Assembly (NCBI GenBank): GCA_964626635.1
Contig: CAZVFY010000004.1
Location: 530-64,529, forward strand
Length of the DNA stretch: 64,000 bases
Origin: an uncultured Candidatus Saccharibacteria bacterium
GTDB taxonomy: Bacteria; Patescibacteriota; Minisyncoccia; Phycocordibacterales; UBA918
Reading direction: 5' to 3'
This document shows, piece after piece, positions 13,626 through 31,458 of the stretch (within the stretch, counting starts at the first letter, position 1; every line of letters begins with the position of its first letter). A model generated the notes under the pieces. It was not told the DNA's origin and did not search any database. It saw nothing but the letters and a program-made list of their open reading frames with translations. The position numbers and the translations under genes were made by a program.

Positions 13626-13712
13626 GGAGAGTTGGCTGAGCGGTCGAAAGCGCATCCCTGCTAAGGATGTAGGGGAGCAATCCCCTCGAGGGTTCGAATC
13701 CCTCACTCTCCG
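13626..13712 (+). tRNA. tRNA-Ser (anticodon GCU)
   Basis: Cloverleaf with 7-bp acceptor GGAGAGT/ACTCTCC, anticodon loop CTGCTAA, long variable arm, T-loop TTCGAAT, discriminator G. Confidence 0.85.
13695..13712 (+). repeat. attL-like 18-bp direct repeat (cgaatccctcactctccg) = 3' end of tRNA-Ser
   Basis: Identical 18-mer recurs at 38863-38880. Confidence 0.8.
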
Positions 13713-13772
13713 CACCGAATACTGGTTATCGGCAGACCCGTAGGCTCTTATTTAGAGCCATATAAAATTGCC

Positions 13773-13813
13773 GTTCGAATCCCTTAGAGGTGTCACCTCT
13801 AAGGGATTCGAAC
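13773..13813. repeat. perfect 20-bp-arm palindrome derived from tRNA T-arm (gttcgaatcccttagaggtg|tcacctctaagggattcgaac)
   Basis: Read directly; adjacent to the att region. Confidence 0.75.
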
Positions 13814-13819
13814 TTTTAT

Positions 13820-13852
13820 ACAAAAACAGCTCCTGCAAGGAGCTGTTTTTGT
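13820..13852. terminator. bidirectional terminator hairpin (15-bp perfect stem, A/T runs on both sides)
   Basis: acaaaaacagctcct-gca-aggagctgtttttgt, between tRNA-Ser (+) and convergent oxidase gene (-). Confidence 0.6.
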
Positions 13853-13864
13853 ATTTCTATAATG

Positions 13865-15520
13865 TTACTTCACTTCAAAGTTGAACATCATGCCTGCGTC
13901 TAAATGCTCAGCTATATGACAATGTGCCATCCATGTACCAGGGTTACTCATCTCGATCAAGATGTCGTACGTTGCACCTTCAGGAATCAAGACGGAATCC
14001 TTCCACTGCATGTTCTCATTTAGTTCTCCATCCTTGGCCAAAACAACAAACTTTTGTCCATGGAAATGGATCGGGTGTTGCATAGGGTGCGTTCCTTCAT
14101 CGTCATTGAAGATGCGTACTTTTACCAAGTCTCCTTGATTGAATGACCATCGAATATTTCGATTTCGTTTTTCAGAATCGGTATCCCAAATCTCCCAACG
14201 AATAGTCTCGTCGGTACTCATCCGATTCATCATACCCATATCATCTTCCCACTCAATGCCGTCTTCGCCATGTTCTGCTTCCTCGTCTCCTTCATCAAGA
14301 TACGGTTCACAGCCAGCCATCTCAGGCATCATCTTGCAGTGTTCACGCATCATGTCATCGTCGTTATTTTCTCCCATCATCCCCATGCCTGAACCACCGC
14401 TATTCATGTCATTCATCATTTCACCCATCATGCCCTCCATCTCAATATCCAAACGAAGGTTTTTATCAGGTGCTTTAGCTAGCAGTGTTGCCGCTTGATT
14501 ACGGACGTCAGCGTAATCGGAAGCGTTGCTACGTAAGACCTCAAACTCAACTAGACGATTTGCGTCAGATGGCTCAACGGTCACTGAACCAATCTCCTGG
14601 CCTCGGTGCATGATTGGATACGTGCCTGGTGTATCGTAATACAGTTCGATAACGTATCGCTCTGAAGTACCAATAATTTGATGGTCAATCATTTCTTCTT
14701 TTTCAATCCGTCCTGTATCACCTCCAACTAACTTCATCTGTGCTCCTTCAAACTCTAGTTTGAATGTCCGCGTGCTTGCTACATTCGTGATAAACGTTCG
14801 TGTAATTTCTCCTTGATTAACGGTCAGGTTGTAGTTCTCAGTGTCGTTGATCAGGAGTCGGTCACCAAAGCGTCCCATGAGCGCGTGTGTGACCACCTCA
14901 CGACTGTATTCACCATCTTCGAGGATATCATCGACAATAATATACTCCTCTTGATCTACTTCATTCCAGTAGCCATCTTCGGTAACGATAAAGTTTCCAT
15001 AGAGACCCATATCTTGTTGGTAGTCTTCCCGGACGTGTGGGTGGTACCAGAAGACACCTGTATCAGGGAATTCAAGCTGGTAGCTAAAGGTCTCACCAAC
15101 TTCGACTGCCGGAGTAATCGGTACGGCACCATCCATCTTCCAGTCACCACGCAAGCCGTGAGAATGGAGTGCTGTTTCCATGTCGATGTTGTTAGTAAAG
15201 TTCACCGTTACCTCAGAACCTTTTTCTACCTTAAGAATCGGACCAGGAATCTGACCATTGTATGCCAGTCGCTTCACTGTTCTGTTGCCAACTTCCTGAG
15301 TGACAATAGTCGCTTCCATATCGAATACGTCGCCATCTTTGAGTTCAATAACTTCAGTTGGTTTAACTGACTCCAGTTCGTGCTCTGGAAGCTTTGAAAG
15401 ATCATCCGATCCAAAGTTTGTTAGTGCGTTTTGAAACGCTGGTATTTGGTTGTTACTTTGGAAAAACCAAATACCTCCGATAATGAGCGCTAATGCTCCA
15501 ATTGAAAATATGTATTTCAT
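13865..15520 (-). CDS. multicopper oxidase (CueO/laccase-like) with methionine-rich insert
   Basis: Cupredoxin motifs WYHPH… and C-terminal HCHIAEHLDAGMM; Met-rich segment MEGMMGEMMNDMN…GMGMMGE; N-terminal signal/TM. Confidence 0.85.
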   Translation of the reverse strand: MKYIFSIGALALIIGGIWFFQSNNQIPAFQNALTNFGSDDLSKLPEHELESVKPTEVIELKDGDVFDMEATIVTQEVGNRTVKRLAYNGQIPGPILKVEKGSEVTVNFTNNIDMETALHSHGLRGDWKMDGAVPITPAVEVGETFSYQLEFPDTGVFWYHPHVREDYQQDMGLYGNFIVTEDGYWNEVDQEEYIIVDDILEDGEYSREVVTHALMGRFGDRLLINDTENYNLTVNQGEITRTFITNVASTRTFKLEFEGAQMKLVGGDTGRIEKEEMIDHQIIGTSERYVIELYYDTPGTYPIMHRGQEIGSVTVEPSDANRLVEFEVLRSNASDYADVRNQAATLLAKAPDKNLRLDIEMEGMMGEMMNDMNSGGSGMGMMGENNDDDMMREHCKMMPEMAGCEPYLDEGDEEAEHGEDGIEWEDDMGMMNRMSTDETIRWEIWDTDSEKRNRNIRWSFNQGDLVKVRIFNDDEGTHPMQHPIHFHGQKFVVLAKDGELNENMQWKDSVLIPEGATYDILIEMSNPGTWMAHCHIAEHLDAGMMFNFEVK

Positions 15521-15556
15521 GTGTTTTATAGTTTGCTAGTAATAGGTAAGCGTGAA

Positions 15557-15946
15557 CTAAAATAGTTTGGGATGAAGTATGCCTTTTGAAAACAGTTCTT
15601 GTAGCGGTCTGTAAGAAAAGGTATACGTTCTTTCAGGCGGATAACAATATTGTTTACAAAGAATGCGTTTAGATATACGGAGTACATTGGGAGCAACGGT
15701 CACCGCTGTGGCCAGTAGCCCCGCAGCTGCCAGGAATAAAGTTATCGTTGGTGCCACAGCAAGAAATACTGATTTCCATGCTCCAATATGATCTGCCAAG
15801 TTCATCGGGCAGATGACTTCATCGTGAGACATGAAAGGACAGTCAGTCATGCCCATCGACATATCCATATTTGCTGACATATGGAACAAGCTCACAAACA
15901 TCGTTCCGAGAATAAACAGTAAAATTGTGGCTGACAATATTTTCAT
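15557..15946 (-). CDS. Met/His/Cys-rich small membrane protein, putative copper-handling partner of the oxidase
   Basis: Two TM helices flanking HMSANMDMSMGMTDCPFMSHDEVICPMNLADH; immediately upstream of and co-oriented with the oxidase. Confidence 0.4.
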   Translation of the reverse strand: MKILSATILLFILGTMFVSLFHMSANMDMSMGMTDCPFMSHDEVICPMNLADHIGAWKSVFLAVAPTITLFLAAAGLLATAVTVAPNVLRISKRILCKQYCYPPERTYTFSYRPLQELFSKGILHPKLF

Positions 15947-16011
15947 GTGATGTTGAGTATACCAAAATATCCTTGACCCCTCAGCTCACAGTATCGGGTG
16001 ACCCGGAGCGG

Positions 16012-16085
16012 TGAGAATCCCTTAGCACCCGCAGCGAATATCCGTTATCGGATAGACCCATACACCTTTATTTTAGGCCATATTT
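16012..16085. repeat. degenerate second copy of tRNA-Ser 3' end + downstream flank (tandem att remnant)
   Basis: gagaatccct…gaatatccgttatcggatagacccatacacctttattttaggccatat parallels 13697-13765. Inverted T-arm fragment taagggattcgaac at 16121-16134 mirrors 13800-13813. Confidence 0.6.
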
Positions 16086-16172
16086 TCTCTGTAGCAGTTT
16101 TCGCCTAGTCTGGACCCCAGTAAGGGATTCGAACCGCACACGGCTCAATGTAGCCGTTTGATCAGTTTTGGC

Positions 16173-16649
16173 TTATTTAGCTATAAATTCATTCAGTAGC
16201 TCTAGATACTGAATCTGTGTTTTAGCGGGTATCTTTGGATGTTTAAAAGATCTTATCTCACCCTTGCTCGCAATCACATCTTCCACGGTATCAAAATAGA
16301 AACCTTCTGGTGAAGCAATAAATAAGGCCGCTCGTTTCCATGATTTTTGTATCGCCTTGGCTGCCTGCAGAACACGACTCTTAGTCACTTTGTTCATATA
16401 TTTCACCTCAATTAGATGTACTTCTTTAGACTTGTGATTGATGATAGTAAAGTCTGGTGCTCGCTTAATGATCTCCATCGTTTCAGCTGTAGCAGGACTT
16501 TTTGGGTGCATCTGTGCCAATGATGGCAAGGTCTTCTCGTAGCCAAATTCTAAGATGGTGTACGCATCAGTACTGCGAATCATCTGAGCAAAGATAAGCT
16601 CGGCAATTTTGCCTTTAATCAGTTCGTGGGTGAAGTGGATGTTATTCAT
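16173..16649 (-). CDS. PD-(D/E)XK restriction-endonuclease-like protein
   Basis: Mrr-cat-like N-terminus (GKIAELIFAQMIR…GYE) and PDFTII…EVHLIEVKY (D…E-x-K) motif; motif-level only. Confidence 0.45.
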   Translation of the reverse strand: MNNIHFTHELIKGKIAELIFAQMIRSTDAYTILEFGYEKTLPSLAQMHPKSPATAETMEIIKRAPDFTIINHKSKEVHLIEVKYMNKVTKSRVLQAAKAIQKSWKRAALFIASPEGFYFDTVEDVIASKGEIRSFKHPKIPAKTQIQYLELLNEFIAK

Positions 16650-16722
16650 GGGTTTTATTATAAACCAGTTTGTATAGGCTAAATAAGCAACGTGAGCGTT
16701 TATTTAACTAATTCTATACAAC

Positions 16723-17772
16723 ATGAACGTAACAACACTAATGGTTGGCTATGAACCGTCAGCTTTAGAGACTCTCAAGGGTGCACAACTAACACGGCAT
16801 CAATACTTTCAAGATACCCTCGCTCGATATAATTTTGGCGAGGTTTTGTTTTTGTCTGAAAACGAGAGTAAAGAACAGATTACTTCAATCAACCCACTGC
16901 TCGTATTTGTCACCCATGATACGATCGCTCGGGAACTAAAAGAAATCAAATCTGATTACTTACTCTACGTTATTCCTAACTACAATCAGATCTTTGCTCG
17001 AAAAGCTGAAGTCAAAGAAAAGAAAGAGAAATTGAACAAGATATTCACTGAAGCAGAGGGTGTTATCGCAGAAGTCTTAAGTGGCGAAAAGGAAGATAAA
17101 GACCTGCGTCACTTTGCTTCACTTAGTTACAAAGATATGTACGACATGATTACCAAAGCCTTGATCAGTGATGATGAAGATTTAAAGAAAAATGCTTGGG
17201 ACTTGCTCTGGGATAATAGTCCTAAACACAGTAATCTCATATGGATGCGAGTGCAGATGATGGCTGATTGTTGGCAACACTCTAAAGGAGAATCTTTAGA
17301 GCAACTGATGTTAATGTCCATGGAGTGTCACCTTGAAATGGATCTTGTGAGACAAATGGATGATTTCATTGATGCCGATGGAAATCAGTATCACCAGTAC
17401 ATGTTTCTTGATCCCTATGGTCGTGACGTGAATCACATCAGACGTCTACCCTATGCCCATAAAAACGAAGACAGATATGCCTATGAAGCCAGACTAGAGA
17501 AGAGTGAAATACCCACTAATTTTTTACGGGTACAGTTGGAAGCTAATCAGTATCGACAACAGTGTGACGAATATTTGGAAGCTGAGTGTGAAAAAATTCA
17601 AGTGATACTTGATAGCTACGAAAAGAACCCAAAATCGAGCAAGTCTGAACTTGGCATTACGACACATAATGATGACCAAGATAAAAAGCCTTTAAGTAAA
17701 AAAGAAGTTACAATGTTAAAACAAATGCAAAAAGAGAATAAAAACCTAATGTATAAAAATGAGCACGTTTAG
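16723..17772 (+). CDS. hypothetical protein (349 aa), first gene of + strand island operon
   Basis: Long ORF, AT-rich codon usage consistent with island; no recognisable motif. Confidence 0.5.
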   Translation: MNVTTLMVGYEPSALETLKGAQLTRHQYFQDTLARYNFGEVLFLSENESKEQITSINPLLVFVTHDTIARELKEIKSDYLLYVIPNYNQIFARKAEVKEKKEKLNKIFTEAEGVIAEVLSGEKEDKDLRHFASLSYKDMYDMITKALISDDEDLKKNAWDLLWDNSPKHSNLIWMRVQMMADCWQHSKGESLEQLMLMSMECHLEMDLVRQMDDFIDADGNQYHQYMFLDPYGRDVNHIRRLPYAHKNEDRYAYEARLEKSEIPTNFLRVQLEANQYRQQCDEYLEAECEKIQVILDSYEKNPKSSKSELGITTHNDDQDKKPLSKKEVTMLKQMQKENKNLMYKNEHV

Positions 17773-18301
17773 TATCCCGTTTCCTGAGTATGATATTGCT
17801 GACATACTTCAGAAAAAGTTTCCCAAAAAAGAGAACTTTTCAGTTGCGATACCAATGAGCCGACAACAGAAGTTTTATGACTTGCTGTTGGTTAAAGGTG
17901 AAAATAAACGATCTGTGACAATTCAAGTTAAGAGCTCAAGAACATGGCTGGCAAATGATAAAGATGATTTTCAGTTTGCTTCATGGCTGAATCACTTTGA
18001 TATCAAGAATAACTATAGTGATTTCTATTTCATCTACATGACACATCCAGTGTTTGATGAAAACTTTAAACCGAAGGCAAAGTGGGATCGAAAAATTCTT
18101 GTCTTTAATCAAAAAGAAATGATCAAGATTTTAGACAGTGTAAAAACTAAATCTGGTAAACCGGAAAAGTTTTTCTCTTTTGGGTTTAATGCTGACGGCA
18201 AAATGATTACTGGCGAAAGAGGTTTTTCACACTTACCGAAGAAAAACTTCGCAAAGAACTTATTGGAAAACAAGCTTGATGAAATTCAGAAGAAGTTTTA
18301 A
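17759..18301 (+). CDS. hypothetical protein (180 aa)
   Basis: ORF overlapping upstream gene by 14 nt (translational coupling). Confidence 0.45.
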   Translation: MSTFSIPFPEYDIADILQKKFPKKENFSVAIPMSRQQKFYDLLLVKGENKRSVTIQVKSSRTWLANDKDDFQFASWLNHFDIKNNYSDFYFIYMTHPVFDENFKPKAKWDRKILVFNQKEMIKILDSVKTKSGKPEKFFSFGFNADGKMITGERGFSHLPKKNFAKNLLENKLDEIQKKF

Positions 18302-18328
18302 GTATCAGTAAGTGGTAAAATTTAAGTT

Positions 18329-18730
18329 ATGAAATGGCTAAAAAATAATAGTGTAGAGATTGTACTGTTCCTTGGACTCACACCTTTCCTCATAAATTTT
18401 TTCGGATATCAAGGAGAGGATGAATATGTGATGTCGATCCCAATTCTTGTCCTCGGTCTGATCATGCTTTACAAACGTCATTTTCGTTCGCGTCAAAGAT
18501 ATTCTGACGCCAGCCTCTTTGCTTCAGATTTTGACGATGATGACGACATGTATGAAGATGCAAAGGATGCTGTTATTGAAGCTGGGAAAGCTTCTACGTC
18601 GTTTCTACAACGAAAACTACGCATCGGTTACTCTCGTTCAGCACGTTTGATGGACTTGCTTGAAGAAAATGAAGTGATTGGTCCTGCAAATGGTTCAGAA
18701 CCACGAGAAATACTCCAGAAAGAACATTGA
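18329..18730 (+). CDS. membrane protein with C-terminal FtsK-gamma (winged-helix, KOPS-binding-like) domain
   Basis: Two N-terminal TM helices; C-terminus [56 protein letters not shown] closely matches the FtsK/SpoIIIE gamma domain consensus. Confidence 0.6.
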   Translation: [133 protein letters not shown]

Positions 18731-18797
18731 TCTGCTAGATAAGATTATTACAAAACAGTCACTGATTAATCAGTGACTGTTTTGTATACTAATAGTT

Positions 18798-19109
18798 ATG
18801 AATGATATAAAAACTGCTCGATCTGAGCTCACTAAACTCATCAGTGAACGCTACTCAATTAAAGCGACCATCGACTTGTATCAAGTGGAAAATTTAACCA
18901 AGCGAGAAAAAGAGATTCTTCAATATGGTTTTGAAGAAGGGGCGAAGTGCGAGCTATTAGTGTTACTTTATAGCTTACTTGAAGGAGGAAAAGATGGTAC
19001 AAAGTTTATTGCCGATCGTGTTGTGCACAAAGTTGACGAGCTCAAGGTTTTAATTGAAGACCCAGACTATATTGAATTAGCCGAGTATCTCCGATCACTT
19101 CGTAAATAA
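18798..19109 (+). CDS. hypothetical protein (103 aa)
   Basis: ORF in operon context. Confidence 0.4.
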   Translation: MNDIKTARSELTKLISERYSIKATIDLYQVENLTKREKEILQYGFEEGAKCELLVLLYSLLEGGKDGTKFIADRVVHKVDELKVLIEDPDYIELAEYLRSLRK

Positions 19110-19129
19110 TATTACTCCTAAGAAGTAAT

Positions 19130-19795
19130 TTGAATATTAAGTGTTACTATTTATCAGTAATGTTTAGAAAACAACATAAAGGAGGTCACGTAATAGAATT
19201 TGAGATCTCATTCAACCTAACAGCAATCGGCGACTGGATTAAAGCTGGCGCGAATATCGAACAGCTCGGTCAAAAAGCACCAAATTGGTATCGTTCAGAC
19301 GATGGGGATACTCTGTACCCTGAGCTTAACTCGTATCGTATTGATGTTGTACCTTATGCAGAAGGTTTTGATGCGTACTATCACCGCAGAGCTAATCAGC
19401 TATCTAACAATATCAGTGGAACAGACTATCTCAGAAATGCAGACAATGAAATTGCTAGATATTGTGAACGACACGGTATTAAAAGCTTTCGCTGGGAAAC
19501 TTGGAACCAGTACATCACTGCCACAGTAAACGAAGAGTTTTTTGTGATGATGGTACCGATATACAAGTTTATTGAGTTACAAACCAATGGAAAGCTAAGT
19601 AATGATAGTTTTGTTGGAACTCGCATTGATACTGAGCAAATTAAGGTGGATGTTCCACTTGCACTCAATGATGATGGTACCGCTAAAAAGACCATGCCAG
19701 TCTGGCATGGTACTGCATCACCGAAATCTATCGGATATATGAACGAGCTAGTCTCAATCTCTGGACATACGTTAAATTTTGAGGTTGAGTACTAG
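19130..19795 (+). CDS. hypothetical protein, first gene of 4-gene tightly coupled module (start ambiguous: TTG 19130 or ATG 19160)
   Basis: Stop lies 2 nt before the MotB-like gene start. Confidence 0.45.
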   Translation: MNIKCYYLSVMFRKQHKGGHVIEFEISFNLTAIGDWIKAGANIEQLGQKAPNWYRSDDGDTLYPELNSYRIDVVPYAEGFDAYYHRRANQLSNNISGTDYLRNADNEIARYCERHGIKSFRWETWNQYITATVNEEFFVMMVPIYKFIELQTNGKLSNDSFVGTRIDTEQIKVDVPLALNDDGTAKKTMPVWHGTASPKSIGYMNELVSISGHTLNFEVEY

Positions 19796-19797
19796 TT

Positions 19798-20508
19798 ATG
19801 GCGACGCAACAAACATCAAATTGGATATCTCTCTCAGACATGATGACTGGTCTCATGCTCATCTTTTTGTTGATTGCTGTATTAGTTACCATGCAGATTA
19901 CTCAAGAACAAAAACAAAGACAACAGTCAGTTGCGGAGTACCAAGAAATTAAAGATGATATTTACGCTGATCTAAATGAAGCATTTGCTTCTAAGGAAGA
20001 TGAGTGGGGTATCGCTATTACCCGTGATCTTGTGATCAAGTTTGAGAACCCTGATCTTCTATTTGGAGTTGATGAATCAAACCTTAAAGAAGAATATGAA
20101 GTTATTTTAGATGAATTTGTTCCACTGTATATTGGCATCATAAATAAAGAAGAGTATAAAGATCGAATTAAAGAAGTGCGAATCGAAGGTCATACAGCTG
20201 ACGTGTCGGATGCTCATCCGACATATATGAGCACCATTTCTCTGTCTCAAAATAGATCCAATGCTGTTTTAGAGTATATTCTTGAGAGTAACTTTTTCAA
20301 TTCTTTAGACAACGACCAGCAGAGCAAGCTAAGATTTTGGTTTAGTGCGAATGGTCTAGGTAACGGACGAACTTTAGACGAAAATAGCCAGTTTACATAC
20401 ACAACCAATGCTCCGATCAGTCCAAATTCAAGAAGAGTAGAGTTTAGGATTCTCACAGATAGTGAGAGTTTGATAGACGAAATTTTTAGCCAAGATATTA
20501 ATATATAA
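19798..20508 (+). CDS. MotB/ZorB-like protein (TM plug + OmpA-like peptidoglycan-binding domain)
   Basis: N-terminal LSDMMTGLMLIFLLIAV resembles the MotB plug/TM with a conserved Asp; C-terminal OmpA-like SLSQNRSNAVLEYI…RRVEFRI. Confidence 0.65.
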   Translation: MATQQTSNWISLSDMMTGLMLIFLLIAVLVTMQITQEQKQRQQSVAEYQEIKDDIYADLNEAFASKEDEWGIAITRDLVIKFENPDLLFGVDESNLKEEYEVILDEFVPLYIGIINKEEYKDRIKEVRIEGHTADVSDAHPTYMSTISLSQNRSNAVLEYILESNFFNSLDNDQQSKLRFWFSANGLGNGRTLDENSQFTYTTNAPISPNSRRVEFRILTDSESLIDEIFSQDINI

Positions 20509-20512
20509 ATTT

Positions 20513-21550
20513 ATGAATGAAACAACGTCAATTATTCTCGTAATCTCCGTAGTAGTTTCCATTTGTATATTTGTGAGTCCGTGGTTCTTGCGTTTTTGGA
20601 AAAATTCTTCTGAAATTCAGACCACTGTTACTACCATGGGTATTGTTGGTACTTTCACAGGTATCTTAATTAGTCTTTCAAACTTTGACGTTGCAAATAT
20701 CAGCACCACAATCCCGCAGCTAATTAATGGTTTGCAATTAGCATTCCTCACTTCCATTGCTGGAATCGGAACGTCGTTAATTGTAAATCTATTTCCAAGA
20801 TTTTATTTAATAAAGGTTGGAACAGAAGAAGAGACTTTATCTGATACGGAGTTATTAAGTGCGATGCATGCTGAATTGATAAAGCTTAACAATAATATTT
20901 CTGGAGATAGTGACTCTACTCTTATTACACAAATCCAAAAACTGCGTACCAGTGTCACTGACAAACAAGATGAACTGAAGAAATCATTTGATCAGTTTGC
21001 TGAGGGAATGGTCAACAGCAATATTGATGCGCTTGCAGAAGCAATTGACAAAGTAATGGGTGAATTTAATACCACTGTTAATGAAAAACTTGGAAAAACT
21101 TTTGAGGACTTCAGAGCAGCTGTCGACAATCTTAATCAGTGGCAAGCCGAGTATAAAGGCCAGATTGATTCTCAAACTGAAAACATGAAGTCTGTCCACG
21201 AATCACTAGGTGCGGTGACTGACAGCATGAATGCAGTGGCTGAATCAATGAACGAAATCACTGTTATTAAACAGAAGTTTGATGAGCTGCTAGAACAACT
21301 AAATGCGCAACTCCAGGGCAGTCTTGATTTCTCAACTTCTATGAAAGACCTTTCTTCTGAGTTGGAAGGTTCTGGCAAGATGATTCGAGACGAGCTTAAT
21401 GAAATTACTCGCGGTGCAGCTGATGAAATGGAAAAAGTGATAAACAAAACACTGGCTGACTTTGGTAGCAATCTTGCATCCATTTCAGGTAAATTAGCTG
21501 AAGACTTTGAGCGTGTACAGCAGATGCTAGAAAATTCATCAAACCGTTAG
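20513..21550 (+). CDS. MotA/ExbB/ZorA-like proton-channel protein with long C-terminal coiled-coil
   Basis: TM1 then MGIVGTFTGIL…GLQLAFLTSIAGIGTSLIVNLF (MotA/TolQ/ExbB signature) followed by ~200 aa heptad-rich tail. Confidence 0.55.
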   Translation: MNETTSIILVISVVVSICIFVSPWFLRFWKNSSEIQTTVTTMGIVGTFTGILISLSNFDVANISTTIPQLINGLQLAFLTSIAGIGTSLIVNLFPRFYLIKVGTEEETLSDTELLSAMHAELIKLNNNISGDSDSTLITQIQKLRTSVTDKQDELKKSFDQFAEGMVNSNIDALAEAIDKVMGEFNTTVNEKLGKTFEDFRAAVDNLNQWQAEYKGQIDSQTENMKSVHESLGAVTDSMNAVAESMNEITVIKQKFDELLEQLNAQLQGSLDFSTSMKDLSSELEGSGKMIRDELNEITRGAADEMEKVINKTLADFGSNLASISGKLAEDFERVQQMLENSSNR

Positions 21551-21553
21551 CTT

Positions 21554-22372
21554 ATGGATAAGCGGGAGCTTAATCAGAAACTGGCAGACATCGCAAGCAC
21601 TTTTTCGGTTGCCAAGAGCAAAATAAAAGCTCAGGATGTTGGTTTCAAAATCACACCTCGTGAACTCAAGGATCCAATGGATAAATTCAATGCTGGTAAA
21701 CCAATTACTGGTGTTGAACTGCAAAAGATTTCTGAAAATTGGCAATCAAAAGCTCCACTCGTTGATGAGGATGGTAACGCGTTTGTGCTTTATATTCCTG
21801 ATTGGCAATTCAATTTCAATAGAGGGAGAAATAACCCTGCTGATTTGCATAAATACCATGTTTCATGGTGCGGTGTACTTGAATATATGCAAGGCGCAGG
21901 TCGTTTCAAGCGGTACATCAAGAAAACTAATATTGAATCAAATATCTTTCTAGGTAAGCAAGCTGATGACAGAAACGCAGAAAGTGTCTTATACGCTTGT
22001 AAGACCTGCAGAAAGAAGATGGCGGAAGTGGCAGGTCATAGTCTCTATTTCAACGTTGAAAATATGGACATACTCAAGTTTTTTGCGAAGTACGGCAAAC
22101 AAGATATGCTCGACCCTAAGACTAATCGCTTATATTCTGTGGTCTATCCCAAGCACTGGCAAGAAATTTCTAAAAAATACCGTGAACAAGCTAATTGGAC
22201 TTGTGCAGAGTGTCATAAATCGTTTGAGCATAATCGAGCCATGTTAGATGTTCATCATATTGATGGTGTTAGGAGTAACGTAAAAAATACTAACTTAAGG
22301 GTTTTGTGTAAGGATTGTCATGCAAAACAACCGATGCATGGACATTATAAACAACTTATAAAAAATACTTAA
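21554..22372 (+). CDS. HNH endonuclease (ZorE-like effector candidate)
   Basis: C-terminal CAECHKSF…LDVHHIDG…N…NLRVLCKDCHA HNH motif with two CxxC pairs; 3-nt gap after the MotA-like gene. Confidence 0.65.
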   Translation: MDKRELNQKLADIASTFSVAKSKIKAQDVGFKITPRELKDPMDKFNAGKPITGVELQKISENWQSKAPLVDEDGNAFVLYIPDWQFNFNRGRNNPADLHKYHVSWCGVLEYMQGAGRFKRYIKKTNIESNIFLGKQADDRNAESVLYACKTCRKKMAEVAGHSLYFNVENMDILKFFAKYGKQDMLDPKTNRLYSVVYPKHWQEISKKYREQANWTCAECHKSFEHNRAMLDVHHIDGVRSNVKNTNLRVLCKDCHAKQPMHGHYKQLIKNT

Positions 22373-22384
22373 AATTATCTTGAA

Positions 22385-23737
22385 TTAGGCGCTGTTTAGC
22401 AATTCCACCACTTTATCCTCAACCAGCACCTGACTCTTAAAGCATCCCATCAATTCACGCTTTTCTTCATTCGAGCCTTCTTTGAGCAGATACTTGGTGT
22501 ACGTTTTTAGTTCGACATCTTTGTGTTTCTCCCTATTTCCTGCAACACCCAGTACACCTTTGTGGAATTTATTAAAACGTTTAAGTTCTTCCTCGAATTT
22601 TATTTGCACGCCAGTTCTGTTTAGGTCAATTTTATCCATCAGTTTTATAAGCTGTTCTACCAAGTCTTCCTCTCGTAAATATGGATTTTTGCAGTGTCGA
22701 TCTTTTGATCGACCGCATCCGTAGTATATATACTTGGCAGACGTACCGTCCTTCAGCTGTTTGTATTTCTCTTCCGCAGAAATTCCCGAGCCACACAGTC
22801 CACAGGTCATGAGCTTTGTGAAAGCAAACTCTCTAGATTGACGAACAATATTGTCTCGTTTGAGTTGCTCTTGCACTTTATCAAAAAGCTCTTTGTCGAT
22901 AATTGGTTCATGTTTGCCGTCGTACCAATTACCACTCCCACGGGGGTATTCAAACTTGCCGTAGTAGAAGGTGTTTTGCAGTGTGCGGTATACGTTACTC
23001 AACGCTAATGGCTTGTTGCCTCTAGTATGAAAATTAAGCTCAAAGCGTAGCCAGTGATATATCTTTCGACCAGACCATTTATCATTTCCCATCTTCTCAA
23101 AGATTTGTCGTACTACATGAGCTCTTTCTGTATCAATAATTACCTGACACTTCTTATCAATATGTTTTTGGTTCAGGTATCCAACTGGCGCTACACCCGG
23201 CCACAATCCCATCTCACACCGTGTCCGCAGTCCGCGCTTCACGTTTATGCCTCGGTTATCGTTTTCAAGTTTTGCTTGACTACCAAGAATCATCAAGAGA
23301 AACTTCTCGTTTGGGTTGTTAGTGAATGTTTGGCTAAAGGTACGTATCTCATGCAACTTTCCAGCATCCATAAGGTCGACAATCTTTCCCAAGTCCCCAG
23401 CATTTCGTGAGATTCGATCCGGTGCCCACGTCAGTATGCTATTGTATTTACCATCGTATATCTCACTGACAATTTCATTAAAGACTGGCCTACAACCAGT
23501 CTCCTTGGCTGAGTGACTTTCTCGCTTCATGGAGACTATCTCCAATCCGTCACGTTCGGCTAGCTGAAGCATTTCCTTAATTTGTGAGTCAATTGACATC
23601 ACTTGTCGCTCTTCACTTTCAGTACTTTTTCTTGCGTATAGGCAATACTTCAGTTTTGTTGTTTCTTCCATACAACCACATTGATGACGCAACAGCCTTG
23701 ATGAGTCCAGAGCGTCCTCGCTCCCTATAGTTGACAT
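22385..23737 (-). CDS. large serine recombinase
   Basis: Resolvase catalytic domain (YARKSTE…SIDSQ), recombinase domain, zinc-ribbon (CGLCGS…CGRS…HC) and coiled-coil; likely true start at internal Met near 23671. Confidence 0.85.
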   Translation of the reverse strand: MSTIGSEDALDSSRLLRHQCGCMEETTKLKYCLYARKSTESEERQVMSIDSQIKEMLQLAERDGLEIVSMKRESHSAKETGCRPVFNEIVSEIYDGKYNSILTWAPDRISRNAGDLGKIVDLMDAGKLHEIRTFSQTFTNNPNEKFLLMILGSQAKLENDNRGINVKRGLRTRCEMGLWPGVAPVGYLNQKHIDKKCQVIIDTERAHVVRQIFEKMGNDKWSGRKIYHWLRFELNFHTRGNKPLALSNVYRTLQNTFYYGKFEYPRGSGNWYDGKHEPIIDKELFDKVQEQLKRDNIVRQSREFAFTKLMTCGLCGSGISAEEKYKQLKDGTSAKYIYYGCGRSKDRHCKNPYLREEDLVEQLIKLMDKIDLNRTGVQIKFEEELKRFNKFHKGVLGVAGNREKHKDVELKTYTKYLLKEGSNEEKRELMGCFKSQVLVEDKVVELLNSA

Positions 23738-23756: not shown

Positions 23757-25226
23757 ATGCATCGCCTGACCAAGACCGATTTCATCCAGTTTCTCAACTG
23801 CCCAAATTCATTGTGGCTCTTGAAAAATAAGCCTGACCTATACAACACGTATAAGGGCGAGTTTTCGCTGTTTCTTGAGAAATTAATTCGTGAAGGATAT
23901 GAAGTGGAAGAATACGTAGCTAGACTATACCCACAAGCAGTTGATTTAGAACACTGCACATCCGAGGAAGTCGTTAATCACCTCAAAATACCTGGCTGGT
24001 ATACCCAAGCCACACTCGCAACTGACAGTGGTCTCTATGCTCGTATGGACATGATTGAAGTGACATCGTCAAATACACTCACTATTTACGAGATCAAGTC
24101 ATCAACGTCAGTCAAAACGGATAAGAAACACAACCACCTGAAAGACATTTGTTTCCAACAATTTGTTGCTGAAGAAAACGGCTACGTAGTGTCGGCCGTA
24201 CAACATGTACATCTAAACAAGGAGTTTGTGAAAGCTGGTGACATTAACCCAGCCGAACTACTGCAAATTGAAGATGTTACTGAAGCAGTTTCTGCCATCT
24301 ATGCTCAAACTAAGGAAGAAATTAAAGCAGCTTTAGAACACATCAACCGCTCTGAAATTAACGAATCATTGTGCACTTGTATTGATACTACACGAGCTAA
24401 CCACTGTGATACTTTTTTATATTTCAACCAGTCGATACCGGAACATCCTATCTATGAACTAAACAATATTCGTGACGCTAAGATTCAGGTGTTACGAGGC
24501 GGAAATGTTGTGAGTATTGGCGAGATTTCAGCTGACTTTAAGCTCTCGCCATATCAGACACTACAAAAGCAATCAGTTGATCGTGGTGCAGCAATTATCG
24601 ATCATCAAGCTATTGCAGAAGCACTCAGTGACCTTGCGTTCCCACTCTATTTCTTCGACTACGAAACTTTACCGTTTGCGGTACCACGAGTCTCTGGGTA
24701 TAAGCCACACCAACACACACCAGTGCAGTACTCGCTCCATATACTTCATGAAGACGATTCGCTTGTGCATCATGAGTATTTAGCAGACAATCTAGAGCCA
24801 CCAGAGAAACTCATCCAGTCCATGCAAGAGCATATCGGTACTACTGGCACACTAGTATCTTGGTATGCCTCATTTGAGAAGACAAGAAATCGTGAAATGG
24901 CTGAACTATATCCAGCATACGAGCCATTTCTAACCAATCTGAACGACCGCACCTACGATCTGATGGACATTTTCAAGAAAGACTACGTAGATGCAAGGTT
25001 TGAAGGTTCTCAGTCAATCAAGAAGGTGCAACCAGTGTTGGTTCCTGATCTGTCATACAAAGCACTAGAAGTACAAAGTGGCACGATGGCAGTCGACGCG
25101 GCCGAGCGACTGTATGAGATGACAGATGAGTCCGAGATTGCAGAGTTACGAGAAGCCATGTTGCAATACTGCAAGTTGGATACTCTGGCAATGGTGAAGA
25201 TTTATCAAAATCTTAGAGACTTGTAG
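23757..25226 (+). CDS. DUF2779 domain protein (Cas4-like PD-(D/E)XK N-terminus + DnaQ-like exonuclease C-terminus)
   Basis: N-terminus LTKTDFIQFLNCPNSLWL and FFDYETLPFAVP…HTPVQYSLH match DUF2779 hallmarks. Confidence 0.6.
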   Translation: MHRLTKTDFIQFLNCPNSLWLLKNKPDLYNTYKGEFSLFLEKLIREGYEVEEYVARLYPQAVDLEHCTSEEVVNHLKIPGWYTQATLATDSGLYARMDMIEVTSSNTLTIYEIKSSTSVKTDKKHNHLKDICFQQFVAEENGYVVSAVQHVHLNKEFVKAGDINPAELLQIEDVTEAVSAIYAQTKEEIKAALEHINRSEINESLCTCIDTTRANHCDTFLYFNQSIPEHPIYELNNIRDAKIQVLRGGNVVSIGEISADFKLSPYQTLQKQSVDRGAAIIDHQAIAEALSDLAFPLYFFDYETLPFAVPRVSGYKPHQHTPVQYSLHILHEDDSLVHHEYLADNLEPPEKLIQSMQEHIGTTGTLVSWYASFEKTRNREMAELYPAYEPFLTNLNDRTYDLMDIFKKDYVDARFEGSQSIKKVQPVLVPDLSYKALEVQSGTMAVDAAERLYEMTDESEIAELREAMLQYCKLDTLAMVKIYQNLRDL

Positions 25227-25440
25227 CCTCCAAACATGAAGCAAGGTGGTCTGGAGTCAAGAACGCAAAAATAATGTTGCGTGCTATAATGCTTTCATCA
25301 CGAGAGTGATTTTGATCTTTTTACAATAGTAAAAGGGCCCAACCGCCGCATATCTTTATGCGATGAGTGGTTCTAAAATCCGACAAAAGTAAAGAGCTCC
25401 TTATGAGTTCACTTTTGTCGGTCCCCAGCAGGAATGTTGG

Positions 25441-27222
25441 GTGGGTTCTTCGGAACCGGCTCGTAGGGAGTTTTTTGCTACCCGAACTGTCCCAACCATC
25501 AATGATGAGTGGATAGAAAAACCGACAAACATGACAAATACAAATACTCAGGATGAACTTCAAGATCGTATTACCGAACTTGAAGCAGAAATTTCAATAT
25601 TAAGACAACAAAAGAAATATGGTCTTGTCTGGGAAGACAAACCTGAAGATGTGGTGATGCAATGTGAGACTCATGTACCAGTTTTGTCAGAGGTCAAGTC
25701 AAAGAAGATATCTGATCAAACAAAGCTTGAAGAGAATATTTTAATTGAAGGTGATAACTACCATGCATTGTCTGTTCTGAATTACACTCATCGTAAGTCA
25801 CTTGATCTTATTTACATAGATCCTCCATATAACACTGGGGCTAGAGACTGGAAATATAATAATGACTACGTTGATAGTGATGATGCATTTCGTCACAGTA
25901 AGTGGCTTTCATTGATGAATCGGAGATTGCTGCTTGCAAGAAACTTGCTGAAAGATAGTGGCTCGCTAATTGTTGCAATTGACGACTATGAGTTAGCTAC
26001 GCTGGGTCTTTTGCTCAAGCAGGTATTACCACACTACGTACAAGACTTAATTATCATTGAACATCACCCACAAGGTGCTGGTTCAAATACTGTTTCGCGT
26101 ACTCACGAATACGCATATTTAATGACCCCACCAGGGCAAGGAATTCCAAATAGACCTCGGCGAGAAGAAAGGCAAATATGGTCACTTCGAAGATCGGGGC
26201 AAGGTGAAAATAACTGGCGAGCATACCGACCTAATCAGTTTTTTGCAATACTTGTAGATGAGAAAACAAGACAAGTCATCGGTGTAGATAAGAAATTATC
26301 TAAGAATGACAAGTACGACCTAGGTGATACGAAAGAGGGTTACAAACGTATCTATCCAATTGATGGGTCAGGCGGTGAGCGTGCGTGGAGATATAGTTTT
26401 GAATCCATGCAACGACTTATTGATCAAGGCAAAGTTGAGTATACCGATCGTGGGGCGCTGGCTGTCGTGAAAGACGTGGTATCAGCAGTGCCAGTATCGA
26501 GTATTTGGACCGGATCAAAATATAACGCCGGATCTCATGGTAGCCAGCTACTGACTAAAATCTTCGGCAAAAGCGCTGCCTTTCCGTATCCAAAGTCTTT
26601 TCATAACACTTATGACTTAGTTGATTTATTTGTTGGTAATAAGCCAAATGCTAAGGTCCTTGACTTCTTTGCTGGCTCAGGCACAACCGGTCACGCTGTT
26701 CTTGAACTCAACAAAGAAGATGGGGGCAATCGGCAGTTTATCCTCTGTACTAATAACGAGAATAAGATCGCCGAAGAAGTCACGTATCCTCGGGTGAAGA
26801 AAGTGATTAAAGGCTATGGCGATGTTGAAGGTCTTGGTGGCTCACTCCGCTACTACAAAACCAAACTAGTCGACGTTGAAAAACTCCAAAAAGTACCTGA
26901 CGAAAAACGGTTGTCGCTCACATATCAAGCTGGTGAGATGATCGCTTTACGTGAGAATACGTTTGAGGAAACTGAGAAGAATGACTGGTGGCAGATTTTC
27001 TCCAGTCAAACTAAAACCGTTGCTATCTACTTCCAAGAAGACAAGCAGAAACTACGTGAGTTAGTAAAGAAACTGAGTACCAAGCAAGAAGTGGTGTTGT
27101 ATGTATTTTCATGGAGCAAGAACGAATACACTAATGAATTTGCCGAGTACGACAACATTCGGGTGGAGGATATTCCTGAGCCAATCATTGAAGTTTACAA
27201 AGAAATTAACCGCCTGAAATAA
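25441..27222 (+). CDS. mod: Type III restriction-modification methyltransferase (Mod)
   Basis: Motif IV DLIYIDPPYNTG precedes motif I DFFAGSGTTGHAV (beta-class permutation); GTG start, alternative ATG at 25531. Confidence 0.8.
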   Translation: MGSSEPARREFFATRTVPTINDEWIEKPTNMTNTNTQDELQDRITELEAEISILRQQKKYGLVWEDKPEDVVMQCETHVPVLSEVKSKKISDQTKLEENILIEGDNYHALSVLNYTHRKSLDLIYIDPPYNTGARDWKYNNDYVDSDDAFRHSKWLSLMNRRLLLARNLLKDSGSLIVAIDDYELATLGLLLKQVLPHYVQDLIIIEHHPQGAGSNTVSRTHEYAYLMTPPGQGIPNRPRREERQIWSLRRSGQGENNWRAYRPNQFFAILVDEKTRQVIGVDKKLSKNDKYDLGDTKEGYKRIYPIDGSGGERAWRYSFESMQRLIDQGKVEYTDRGALAVVKDVVSAVPVSSIWTGSKYNAGSHGSQLLTKIFGKSAAFPYPKSFHNTYDLVDLFVGNKPNAKVLDFFAGSGTTGHAVLELNKEDGGNRQFILCTNNENKIAEEVTYPRVKKVIKGYGDVEGLGGSLRYYKTKLVDVEKLQKVPDEKRLSLTYQAGEMIALRENTFEETEKNDWWQIFSSQTKTVAIYFQEDKQKLRELVKKLSTKQEVVLYVFSWSKNEYTNEFAEYDNIRVEDIPEPIIEVYKEINRLK

Positions 27223-27223
27223 C

Positions 27224-29521
27224 ATGTTTGCCCTCAAACCATTCCAAGAAAAAGCTCTCACTGACCTTCGTTCCGTCTTCCTCAATTTATGGAAGCGCGA
27301 AGAGTCTCAGTTACCGTTGGTATTTCAGTCACCGACTGGTTCAGGGAAGACCATCATGACAGCTCAGTTCCTGAAAGACCTCACCGGCGACCCACAGTTC
27401 CAAGCAGACAAAGCGTTCTTGTGGATTTCATTTAGCCCCGACTCATACCAACAAAGTAAAGATAAACTATATAAATATTATGGTGGTGCAGGCGAACTCA
27501 ACTTGCTCGACATGAACGATCTCTCGCAAGGCAAGTTATATAACAATGACGTCTTTTTTATCAACTGGCAGAAGGTCGTATCAAAAGCCAAAGAGAACCG
27601 TAAGCTTCGTAGTGAGAACGAACAAGGTGTTTGGTTTGATCGATTTATTGAAGCTACTAAGTCAGCTGGTCGTGAGTTAGTGCTATTGGTAGACGAAGCT
27701 CATACGCACTCTAGTACAGCACTAGCACAAGAAATCATCGACCTCATTGACCCACGTATCATCATCAAAATCACTGCCACTCCGCAAGATACTGATGTAG
27801 TGCAAGCCGCTAAACTGGGATCGTATGTACAAGTAGATCGTGAGGCGGTTGTTGAGCAAGGTCTAATTAAAGAAAAACTTATTTTCCAGACCGAAGATGA
27901 GGTGAAGAAGCTTACTTCTAAACACATCTCCAAAGATGAAGTATTGCTCAAGCTGGCTGTACAGAAACGAGCTGAACTTGAAGTGGGTTACCAAGAAGCG
28001 CAAACATCTGTTAAACCACTCGTTCTGATTCAGCTCCCAAACGACTACAAAGAAACTAAAGTAGTTGAAGTAGACTCGAAAGAAGCCTTGGTGCGACAGT
28101 TTCTCTCAGAACAAGGTGTGCTCGATCACCAAATCGCTACCTGGCTATCTGGTCGGCAAGAAAATCTAGATGGTATCGAACGTCACGACTCACCAATTGA
28201 GTATCTCATATTTAAACAAGCAGCCGCGACTGGTTGGGATTGTCCACGAGCTAGTATCTTGGTAATGTTTCGAGAAATTAAAAACCCAACATTTCAGATA
28301 CAAACCATCGGTCGTATTCTGCGTATGCCTGAAGCCAAGCACTACAGTTTGCCACTATTAAACAGCGCCTATATCTACACTGACTACGAGCGAAATACTA
28401 TTATTGATGGTTATGATCGTGACGCTAACGCGAGTTCATTGCCATCGTGGAATCGTATCGAACGAAAGTCAGATATTGAGCCAATAACACTTACGTCTCA
28501 CGACTTATCCCGTACTGACTACAACGACCTTGGCGATAGTTTTCAGCACACTTTTTTGGAACAAGCACACAGTTTCTTTGGTACTACTGATAAAACTAAA
28601 CCAGCAACTGTCTTGAAGCAACTTAAAGAACAAGGTCTAGCGGTCGATGGTGTCCATCAAGATATCATTGTAAACCTTGAAATCGAAGACTATGATAACT
28701 ACCTAGAAAATCTCCAAGCTCATGGAGTGACCGCGTCGACTGAACTAACAGAGACAGATGTTGAGCGTATCTATAATCTTCTGTGCTACGACATCGTTGC
28801 CAAGCAAGACGAAGAAAAAGCTAAGTACGCACCAGCTCGGTCATGGGGCAAGCTCAAAACTGCACTTAATGTGTGGCTTGGAACTGCCACTAAGCTCTCA
28901 CGTTCAGAAATCTACGCTATGGTGGTAAATGATCTCAGTCGTCCAGCTAGCGTACTGCGGCCACTTGTCACGAAATCGTTTATAGCATACCGCCCCGTGC
29001 GTGACGGTGAAGTGATTAAGAAACAAGAACGCCAGCAAACAGTCCGTACGCTTGAACTTCCACCGCAGACACTATTTGTATCAGATGGTATCAAGAAGAA
29101 ATACCAGAAATCCGCCATGGAACCAGTGCTCACACCTGACCATATGCCAGACAATGAGAAGAAATTCATCGACTTTCTCGAAGATCACGCAAAAGTACAG
29201 TGGTGGTACAAAAATGGTGACAAAGGTACGGAACACTTTGCGTTGCCTTACACGCACAATGGCAAACAAAATCTCTTTTACCTTGACTGGATTATCAAAA
29301 CTAAATCATCTCTCTGGATTATCGACACTAAGAGCGGTATGACCGCCAAAGACGCAGAGACAAAAGCGAAAGCTGAGTCACTGCAACAGTGGCTCAAAAC
29401 ACAGACTGGTATTGAAGGCGGTATTGTCCGCCCAGCTGACGGTTGGTTTATCCATCGAGGCAAGAAATATGCCTATGAACTGGAGAATGGCTGGGAGGAC
29501 TTGAACAAAGTGCTGGTTTAG
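27224..29521 (+). CDS. res: Type III restriction enzyme Res subunit (SF2 helicase + C-terminal PD-ExK nuclease)
   Basis: Motif I SPTGSGKT, DEAH, motif VI QTIGRILR; C-terminal YLDWII…LWIIDTKSG nuclease motif; 1-nt gap after mod. Confidence 0.85.
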   Translation: MFALKPFQEKALTDLRSVFLNLWKREESQLPLVFQSPTGSGKTIMTAQFLKDLTGDPQFQADKAFLWISFSPDSYQQSKDKLYKYYGGAGELNLLDMNDLSQGKLYNNDVFFINWQKVVSKAKENRKLRSENEQGVWFDRFIEATKSAGRELVLLVDEAHTHSSTALAQEIIDLIDPRIIIKITATPQDTDVVQAAKLGSYVQVDREAVVEQGLIKEKLIFQTEDEVKKLTSKHISKDEVLLKLAVQKRAELEVGYQEAQTSVKPLVLIQLPNDYKETKVVEVDSKEALVRQFLSEQGVLDHQIATWLSGRQENLDGIERHDSPIEYLIFKQAAATGWDCPRASILVMFREIKNPTFQIQTIGRILRMPEAKHYSLPLLNSAYIYTDYERNTIIDGYDRDANASSLPSWNRIERKSDIEPITLTSHDLSRTDYNDLGDSFQHTFLEQAHSFFGTTDKTKPATVLKQLKEQGLAVDGVHQDIIVNLEIEDYDNYLENLQAHGVTASTELTETDVERIYNLLCYDIVAKQDEEKAKYAPARSWGKLKTALNVWLGTATKLSRSEIYAMVVNDLSRPASVLRPLVTKSFIAYRPVRDGEVIKKQERQQTVRTLELPPQTLFVSDGIKKKYQKSAMEPVLTPDHMPDNEKKFIDFLEDHAKVQWWYKNGDKGTEHFALPYTHNGKQNLFYLDWIIKTKSSLWIIDTKSGMTAKDAETKAKAESLQQWLKTQTGIEGGIVRPADGWFIHRGKKYAYELENGWEDLNKVLV

Positions 29522-30558
29522 TCGGTAGTGACAATCAAGTTTCGTAGTTGTTGTTCAACATCATACGCATCAGCGTGAGACAAGACACCAAGAAATGATT
29601 GCAGTGAAGCATTAAGTTTATCCTCTTCAATCTCACCAGCTTTGTATTCTCGCACTTTTTCAGCAAACTTACGTTGCATCCGTCTTTTAGTTTTAGTCCT
29701 CACCGATCGGTGATGTGGTCGTATGACATAACCAAGAAAATCGATACCTGATTTCAGCGTTCGGATTGATACTTTCTCAGGGTGTAGTTCCAGCTCCAGT
29801 CGCACACGCAAAAATGCTGTGATTGAGGGTAACAGTGATTGTAGATAGTCGTGAGAATCAGAAACTATCACAAAGTCGTCTGTGTACCGAGCATAGTGCT
29901 TCACTTTCAATTCGTGCTTCATGAATTGATCAAACTCGTTCATGTACACATTCGCAAACAGCTGTGACGTCAGGTTACCAATCGGCAGGCCTCGTTGCTC
30001 GAACAATGATTCAGACGTGGAAAAGCTACTCACTATTTCTTGCAGTATCCACTGCACATCTGGGTCAGTAATTTTACGAAACAACAACTCCAACAAAATC
30101 TCATGATCAACACTATCAAAAAACTTCTTAATATCACACTTCAACACAAAACAAGGATGCGTATAGTTTTTGCTCACCTTTCTCGTTATGGTTTCCAGTC
30201 GCTTCATGCCAACATGATTACCTTTACCAATTCGACACGAGAACGAATCGTTAATAAAGGTGGGCTCAAACAATGGGTTCAGGAGCTTAAACAAAGCATG
30301 ATGCACCACCCGATCGCGAACGGTTGCTTTGTGGATGTGTCGCACTTTTGGATCAGAAATGTAGAAACCAAAGTATGGTTGGTGACGGTATGTTTTATCT
30401 CGCAAATCTTCATGCAACGACAACAAGTTTTGCTCCAATCGATACTCAAACAACGCTACGTCTTTCTTCTTGCGTTTACCTTTCTTAAACCGATCCCACG
30501 ACAACAGCAAGTTAGCTGGTGAAATTATTAGTCTGTATAGATTATTAAACGTTTTCAT
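29518..30558 (-). CDS. diversity-generating retroelement reverse transcriptase
   Basis: RT motifs 1-7, including ATVRDRVVHHAL and the DGR-typical GLPIGNLTSQLFANVY; YTDDFVIV (YxDD); strong resemblance to Bordetella phage bRT. Start set at MKTFNN. Confidence 0.9.
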   Translation of the reverse strand: MKTFNNLYRLIISPANLLLSWDRFKKGKRKKKDVALFEYRLEQNLLSLHEDLRDKTYRHQPYFGFYISDPKVRHIHKATVRDRVVHHALFKLLNPLFEPTFINDSFSCRIGKGNHVGMKRLETITRKVSKNYTHPCFVLKCDIKKFFDSVDHEILLELLFRKITDPDVQWILQEIVSSFSTSESLFEQRGLPIGNLTSQLFANVYMNEFDQFMKHELKVKHYARYTDDFVIVSDSHDYLQSLLPSITAFLRVRLELELHPEKVSIRTLKSGIDFLGYVIRPHHRSVRTKTKRRMQRKFAEKVREYKAGEIEEDKLNASLQSFLGVLSHADAYDVEQQLRNLIVTTD

Positions 30559-30906: not shown

Positions 30907-30951
30907 CAAAACGCATCCATTATGGATGCGTTTTGTGTCAGCGAGACATTT

Positions 30952-31382: not shown

Positions 31383-31458
31383 AAAATTTGCATCGAGTTG
31401 CTTCGCAACAAGTCAAAAATCAAAGACTCAAAAGGTTCAAGCCTTCAATTTTCAAAGA

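Follow-up and report, generated by a model that had tools for sequence, protein, structure and literature searches.

A probable type II Zorya anti-phage operon with the gene order zorB-zorA-zorE in a mobile island of Candidatus Saccharibacteria

We analyzed 64,000 nucleotides (nt) of contig CAZVFY010000004.1 from a Candidatus Saccharibacteria assembly (GCA_964626635.1). We will call this stretch the window, and all coordinates are window positions. From sequence comparisons, it is highly probable that positions 19798–22372 encode a complete anti-phage system of Zorya type II, apparently intact, in the form of a three-gene operon, zorB-zorA-zorE. The system looks intact because the key residues and motifs of ZorB, ZorA, and ZorE are conserved. 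What we observed directly is limited to family membership, the conservation of key residues, the structure of the operon, and a gene order that is specific to one clade.

An initial annotation of this DNA had described four genes that are 2–4 nt apart, and all four open reading frames (ORFs) are indeed where it placed them, on the same strand, with gaps of 2, 4, and 3 nt. The first is an upstream ORF, which we discuss below. The second, zorB (19798–20508, + strand), encodes 236 amino acids (aa), with a transmembrane (TM) helix that includes Ser13-Asp14 and a C-terminal OmpA-like domain. It is followed by zorA (20513–21550, + strand; 345 aa), whose product has three TM helices with the MotA/ExbB channel motif and then a helical cytoplasmic tail. 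The last gene, zorE (21554–22372, + strand; 272 aa), encodes a protein with DUF8245 in its N-terminal part and, toward the C terminus, an HNH nuclease domain with a cysteine-rich zinc motif. The initial annotation had noted that its interpretation would fail if the HNH gene formed a transcription unit of its own. This is not the case: the gene is on the same strand as zorA and just 3 nt away from it, and a consensus scan of the + strand found no terminator-like sites between the four genes. With gaps of 4 and 3 nt, zorB, zorA, and zorE are adjacent in one transcription unit, and the spacing of the Zorya genes is equally tight in 10 related loci. The GC content of the region is low (0.36–0.45), while that of the flanking DNA is around 0.55.

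The 236-aa protein matches the ZorB2 profile from PADLOC (PDLC00641) over its full length (E = 3.5e-68). It also matches ZorB2 from NCBIfam (E = 4.1e-31, under the equivalog cut-off) and OmpA from Pfam (33.8 bits, with a gathering score of 27.2). Its best match in the PDB is 8vvi_A (E = 1.8e-35), and the alignment is nearly end-to-end. 8VVI is the type II ZorAB complex from Sulfuricurvum kujiense, with the composition ZorA5B2 (PMC11890865). Asp14 aligns with Asp21 of the S. kujiense protein, which is critical there (PMC11890865). In the window's ZorB, the motif LSDMMTGLMLIF occupies residues 12–23, within the single TM-like segment (residues 8–38). In an alignment of 15 loci with either gene order, W9, S13-D14, EGHT, LSQxR, and SRRVEF are conserved. 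In other words, ZorB is a MotB-like protein with a conserved aspartate in its TM helix and a peptidoglycan-binding OmpA-like domain, just as the initial annotation had it.

The 345-aa protein matches ZorA2 from PADLOC (PDLC00637; E = 1e-55), with residues 9–307 aligned to positions 17–315 of the 420-position model, as well as ZorA2 from NCBIfam (E = 2.8e-32). Its match to MotA_ExbB from Pfam is above the gathering score (26.8 vs. 22.9 bits). The best match in the PDB is 8vvi_F (378 aa; E = 1.1e-23), with residues 38–338 aligned to 36–366. There are three hydrophobic segments near the N terminus, which correspond to TM helices at about 6–28, 38–58, and 73–95, and the tail of about 240 aa has no prolines. 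The motif GxLGTFxGI...PxLLxGLxxAFxTSxxG is conserved in both of the gene-order groups described below (14–15 loci aligned). This is the long-tailed, three-helix relative of MotA, TolQ, and ExbB that had been recognized at the outset, and it has the MotA/ExbB-like membrane region, the long C-terminal helical tail, and the ZorA2 match that are expected of ZorA. The shortness of the protein had been taken as unusual. But the ZorA of the S. kujiense type II system has 378 aa, with a tail at 100–378 (PMC11890865), and homologues that are at least 37% identical to the window's ZorA have 301–398 aa. Because of these lengths, we do not consider 345 aa to be anomalous; a three-TM ZorA of this size is normal for type II. 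Furthermore, compared to the complex of type I, that of type II is "substantially" smaller, and each type has conserved component sizes (PMC11890865).

The 272-aa protein matches ZorE2 from PADLOC (PDLC00642; E = 6e-47) and ZorE from NCBIfam (E = 3.1e-36). Although its match to Pfam's HNH family is just under the cut-off (19.2 vs. 21.4 bits), these strong matches uphold the description of the fourth gene as an HNH endonuclease, and the HNH motif is C-terminal. Its homologues bear PF26739 (DUF8245), and DUF8245 with HNHc is the domain architecture of ZorE (PMC13192584). Across 14–15 loci, C217, C220, V233-H234-H235, N247, C252, H256, and H262 are invariant or nearly so, and the pattern CxxC...VHH...N...C..H...H is retained in both gene-order groups. 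So, the protein is an HNH effector with the DUF8245 and HNHc regions of ZorE. A search of PDB sequences with ZorE gave no match.

The genes in the window are not in the canonical order, as the initial annotation pointed out: the gene for the B-like protein comes first. To our knowledge, the canonical order describes the founding examples and is not required by the rules of PADLOC or DefenseFinder. Scans of genome, metagenome, and viral collections with a ZorE alignment gave just 3, 5, and 5 loci. We merged duplicates (L007 = L008 = L009 and L010 = L011), and we set aside L019–L022, which are unrelated HNH proteins and not Zorya loci. Of the 18 distinct type II loci, 11 have the order zorB-zorA-zorE, or zorA-zorE where the contig is cut: the window, L007, L010, L012, L013, L014, L015, L016, L023, L024, and L027. 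The other seven have zorA-zorB-zorE, or zorB-zorE. These are L004 and L005 from Clostridium, L006 from Romboutsia, L017, L018 from IMG/VR, L025 from a metagenome-assembled genome (MAG) of Bacteroidetes, and L026 from an alphaproteobacterial MAG.

In midpoint-rooted neighbor-joining trees of ZorB, of ZorA, and of ZorE, the loci with the B-A-E order form one clade and the A-B-E loci lie apart from it. The swapped order is a lineage trait, shared by a clade of compact and otherwise canonical type II systems, and it does not point to another mechanism. The named members of the clade are from Candidatus Paceibacterota (L010, P0021, and P0075) and Candidatus Kaiserbacteria (L023). Judging from these nearest named homologues, the window itself would also belong to the Candidate Phyla Radiation (CPR); a comparison of housekeeping genes showed none that the window shares with the named loci. 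We found no link between Zorya and the CPR in the literature that we searched, leaving out of account one paper that names both Patescibacteria and Zorya. In L023 and L024, zorB-zorA-zorE stand alone, with flanking genes that are housekeeping (ribosomal proteins, grpE-dnaK) or otherwise unrelated. Because these two loci carry only the three genes, zorB-zorA-zorE is the minimal unit of the clade.

ZorA and ZorB belong to a superfamily of ion-driven motors. We considered that this pair might be a housekeeping energizer of the MotAB, ExbBD, or TolQR type (serving motility, transport, or the upkeep of the envelope), with an unrelated HNH homing endonuclease beside it by chance. Its Pfam matches are indeed generic (OmpA and MotA_ExbB, with weak matches to MotB_plug and ExbD), and so are the source annotations. 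However, the profiles that are specific to Zorya are far stronger. In NCBIfam, the Mot and Exb profiles are at least 20 orders of magnitude weaker than ZorB2, ZorA2, and ZorE; for instance, MotB, MotS, and MotD match ZorB with E of 9e-5 to 8e-4, against about 4e-31 for ZorB2. PADLOC's lesser matches include other Zorya types (ZorA1, E = 3.6e-13; ZorB1, E = 1.5e-51; ZorA3 and ZorB3, 1e-5 to 1e-8). Thus 19798–20508 and 20513–21550 both have significant matches among the Zor, Mot/Exb, and OmpA families, and the best are Zor-specific. Also, the HNH protein has the DUF8245 region that is specific to ZorE, and in 18 of 18 distinct loci its gene is found in synteny with the stator pair. The genes lie in a mobile island that is low in GC and also encodes restriction-modification enzymes, and the annotated part of the island (16–37 kb) has no flagellar, TonB, or Pal partners. 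A flagellar MotAB would be expected to have Mot families as its best matches, a four-TM MotA, and a flagellar context, and we see none of these. Given the strength of the Zor profiles in PADLOC and NCBIfam, we reject a housekeeping stator, which we consider extremely improbable. The idea that a stator pair with an HNH effector follows the logic of type II Zorya is instead supported by the ZorB2, ZorA2, and ZorE profiles from both collections and by 8VVI as the best match for both ZorA and ZorB.

Some observations do weigh against a type II Zorya system or against our account of its gene order. The NCBIfam scores are under the strict equivalog cut-offs (109 vs. 400, 112 vs. 700, and 125 vs. 600 bits), which implies that the clade has diverged from the reference systems. 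Proteins in public collections that are identical to the window's are annotated at the source as "OmpA-like," "methyl-accepting chemotaxis protein," and "hypothetical." The presumed role of the B-A-E clade in defense comes from its homology with other type II systems. And 18 distinct type II Zorya loci is a small sample of gene orders, and a larger one might include loci whose order does not match their clade.

The initial annotation had also made the upstream ORF part of the module. This ORF (19130–19795, + strand) has 221 aa if it begins at the mechanical TTG start, but an in-frame ATG at 19160 would give 211 aa. The ATG is most likely the real start, because this codon and the MF(K/R)KQ that follows it are conserved in the DNA of the homologues from L001–L003. 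The product is a soluble protein from a rare family: we found five clusters among 5.8e9 proteins, and a profile search found 47 representatives among 1.84e9, nearly all of about 200 aa. No member has a match above the curated cut-offs in Pfam, PADLOC, NCBIfam, or PHROGs. With the 41-sequence alignment from the profile search, its structure was predicted with a pLDDT (predicted local distance difference test) of 93. (With a 6-sequence alignment of the 221-aa form, the pLDDT was 36.6, which is unusable.) The predicted fold is confident yet unmatched.

If this protein were an accessory, sensor, or regulatory component, then the locus would be an undescribed four-gene variant of Zorya. Only 2 nt separate this gene from zorB, both are on one strand, and our scan of the + strand found no terminator-like site between them, which fits with this idea; the gene is probably co-transcribed with zorB here. 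Also, the protein's family is genuine and conserved, and its fold could be predicted with confidence. However, homologues that are 53–84% identical are found in loci that lack ZorA, ZorB, and ZorE (L001, L002, and L028); in L003, the contig stops right after the gene. In L001, the homologue adjoins small unknown genes, and in L002 and L028 it adjoins an HTH_17 gene, followed by genes for a 1585-aa helicase and for WYL, DUF2779, Mrr, and HEPN proteins. Furthermore, the gene is missing from 10 of the 10 other B-A-E loci. The closest syntenic relative of the window, L027 (79–87% DNA identity), aligns to 16015–18710 and then again from 19799, at the start codon of zorB, to 25955. In place of the intervening 18711–19798, which encodes a 103-aa protein and the 211-aa protein, L027 has 2.8 kb with a different set of genes (MauE-like, DUF305, DUF4309-like, and a 121-aa protein). 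The upstream partner of the 211-aa gene is not constant either: it encodes a zinc-ribbon/TM protein in L002 and L003 only, and the window's 103-aa gene is unrelated. Because of the Zorya-free homologues, the absence of the gene from the other B-A-E loci, and the break in homology with L027, the 211-aa gene is a swappable cassette, a separate cargo of the same mobile island, rather than a component of Zorya. A four-gene Zorya is therefore very improbable. It was an overstatement to call the locus an undescribed variant of a stator-driven system, as all that sets it apart from canonical type II is that two neighboring genes have traded places, an arrangement that is common to a clade.

We also considered a gene downstream of zorE as a fourth component. 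The window's DUF2779 gene (23757–25226, + strand) encodes 489 aa. DUF2779 proteins are predicted to be a Cas4-like PD-(D/E)XK nuclease fused to a DEDD 3'-5' exonuclease (PMC3985635; PMC13621843). (The Cas4 match of the window's protein is weak.) The protein might process DNA that ZorE has nicked. A 490-aa DUF2779 gene lies directly after zorE, most often with a gap of 2–8 nt and with no recombinase gene between, in L007–L015, which are the loci with enough sequence from the subclade on serine-recombinase elements; it abuts zorE in 6 of the 6 distinct element-borne loci. In both the window and L027, no + strand gene comes between zorE and DUF2779; the only gene there is a recombinase gene on the opposite strand. 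This partnership would also fit with evidence that ZorE acts on DNA states made by other DNA-processing systems, as it cooperates with Druantia III and RecBCD (PMC13192584). On the other hand, DUF2779 is absent from L023 and L024, which have the B-A-E order, and from the A-B-E loci. It recurs in all of the related serine-recombinase elements, whether or not they have Zorya, and the DUF2779 protein from L002, which lacks Zorya, nests within the Zorya-linked group (70% identity to those of L010 and L012). Also, zorE and DUF2779 do not seem to co-evolve, since the DUF2779 proteins of the window and L027 are 41–46% identical to the others, while their ZorE proteins are 58–83% identical. For these reasons, we reject DUF2779 as an obligate fourth component; an obligate partnership with ZorE is unlikely, and we consider a four-component system with DUF2779 improbable.

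Returning to the three-gene type II system, how might it work? In other type II systems, defense requires ion flow, peptidoglycan binding, the tail of ZorA, and the nuclease activity of ZorE (PMC11890865), and ZorE is a nickase that is recruited by ZorAB (PMC11890865; PMC13192584). By homology to 8VVI, ZorA and ZorB from the window would form an ion-driven motor of the cytoplasmic membrane with a 5:2 stoichiometry. The OmpA-like domain of ZorB would tether the motor to peptidoglycan, and Asp14 in the TM helix would accept the ion. We propose that phage infection perturbs the envelope and thereby causes ions to flow past Asp14. The signal would then travel down the bundled helical tail of ZorA, of about 240 aa. 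Finally, ZorE, as a putative HNH nickase, would be recruited and would damage DNA, which could halt the spread of the phage at the level of the population.

Patescibacteria have ultrasmall cells, lack an outer membrane, and often lack RecBCD. We speculate that the clade with the B-A-E order might be adapted to these bacteria as a compact, functionally separate subtype of type II, and that ZorE might cooperate with the adjacent DUF2779 in the subclade on mobile elements. DUF2779 would then supply or consume DNA intermediates, as RecBCD and Druantia III do for ZorE in E. coli. This seems improbable.

The Zorya operon is cargo of an island of about 25 kb at a tRNA-Ser gene. An 18-nt piece of the 3' end of tRNA-Ser(GCT) (13626–13713) recurs as a direct repeat, CGAATCCCTCACTCTCCG, at 38864–38881; this att-like repeat bounds the island. 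There are additional, inverted T-loop-like fragments at about 16121–16135 and 38730–38748. Also, 13764–16014, which encodes a multicopper oxidase and a 129-aa protein, is missing from the corresponding place in L027, which suggests tandem or nested insertions. A large serine recombinase is encoded at 22385–23737 on the – strand, 12 nt from the stop codon of zorE and 19 nt from the start codon of DUF2779, and L027 has the same arrangement. The recombinase is 68–92% identical to the enzymes of L003, L010, L011, and L027. In L010–L012, the recombinase, Type III mod-res, zorBAE, and DUF2779 cassettes are in a different order than in the window, which indicates that cassettes are shuffled within a family of mobile elements.

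The initial annotation had placed the Zorya genes in a defense island with a Type III restriction-modification system and a diversity-generating retroelement (DGR), and both are there. The mod/res pair matches MTase_III (E = 7.7e-75) and REase_III (E = 2.9e-19). The DGR (29518–32370, – strand) is bona fide: it includes a reverse transcriptase (29518–30588), a template repeat (30947–31077), and a variable repeat (31460–31590) that lies at the 3' end of a 303-aa target gene (31459–32370). The two repeats are 131 nt long and 84% identical, and all of the differences within the repeat are at adenines of the template. Further along, at 34616–36672 on the – strand, is a pair of DNA methyltransferase genes, one encoding a fusion of ParB-N and N6_N4_Mtase and the other N6_N4_Mtase alone. 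These N6/N4 methyltransferases are 39–51% identical to those of L003, L007, L012, and L013, which also lie beside the cargo region, and the pair looks like a backbone module of the element family. We could not pair the window's 497-aa and 130-aa ORFs with the terminase-like genes of L007 and L003: a comparison at E = 1e-5 showed no similarity, and neither Pfam nor PHROGs gave a match.

Several other features of the window are worth recording. Upstream of the Zorya genes, 18329–18730 (+ strand) encodes a small membrane protein whose sole domain is the DNA-binding winged-helix FtsK-gamma (Pfam E = 7.8e-27). An FtsK-gamma gene also lies a few genes 5' of zorB in L027 (3306–3716) and in L024, a distant B-A-E locus (2457–2828). 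The window's FtsK-gamma gene is followed by a terminator-like palindrome of 36 nt without mismatches (about 18750–18785). Between DUF2779 and the Type III methyltransferase gene, Rfam's LOOT RNA (RF03000) matches 25336–25457 on the + strand (55 bits, with a gathering score of 46.4); the match overlaps the mechanical GTG start of the methyltransferase gene (25441). Finally, 6935–7011 on the – strand is a tRNA-Ile with the anticodon TAT (UAU). Such a tRNA is uncommon in bacteria, where AUA is usually read by a lysidine-modified CAU tRNA.

Overall, this is a known and ordinary system in an understudied lineage. It reveals no new mechanism, and the four-gene architecture, which would have been the novelty, is unsupported. 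What it shows is a wider reach of type II Zorya: a compact form, with the two genes consistently swapped, occurs in a group of loci, and those with a named source come from Patescibacteria (CPR). Public annotations miss these Zorya genes, given the generic source labels and the scores under NCBIfam's equivalog cut-offs. Our results should be useful for censuses of defense systems in CPR genomes and for building broader profiles for ZorA, ZorB, and ZorE. With just 301–398 aa in ZorA, the clade also offers a small natural system for studying how tail length and ZorE recruitment scale. The orphan 211-aa family and the tRNA-Ser/serine-recombinase islands that shuffle defense cassettes are by-products of this analysis.

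How does the window's system compare to those that are already known? Canonical type II systems, such as those of S. kujiense (8VVI) and E. coli, have the same three families in one tight operon: a small three-TM ZorA with a long helical tail, a ZorB with the TM aspartate and an OmpA-like domain, and a ZorE with DUF8245 and HNH. The order of the genes differs, with zorA-zorB-zorE in the canonical systems and zorB-zorA-zorE in the window. The window's proteins are only about 26–36% identical to those of the A-B-E type II systems, and its ZorA has 345 aa instead of the 378 of S. kujiense. The type II systems studied so far are from Proteobacteria, while the lineage here appears to be Patescibacteria/CPR. 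Zorya types I (ZorABCD) and III (ZorABFG) share the 5:2 ZorAB motor core with its ZorA tail, but the window lacks ZorC, ZorD, ZorF, and ZorG, and its effector is ZorE. Also, the window's ZorA lacks the N-terminal elaboration of type I; it starts at around position 135 of the ZorA1 profiles. MotAB, ExbBD, and TolQR are ion-driven 5:2 motors of the same superfamily; in these too, the TM helix of the B subunit has a conserved aspartate, and the OmpA-like peptidoglycan anchor resembles that of MotB. However, the window's ZorA, unlike the four-TM MotA, combines three TM helices with a long coiled tail, and no flagellar, TonB, or Tol partners accompany it in the annotated 16–37 kb.

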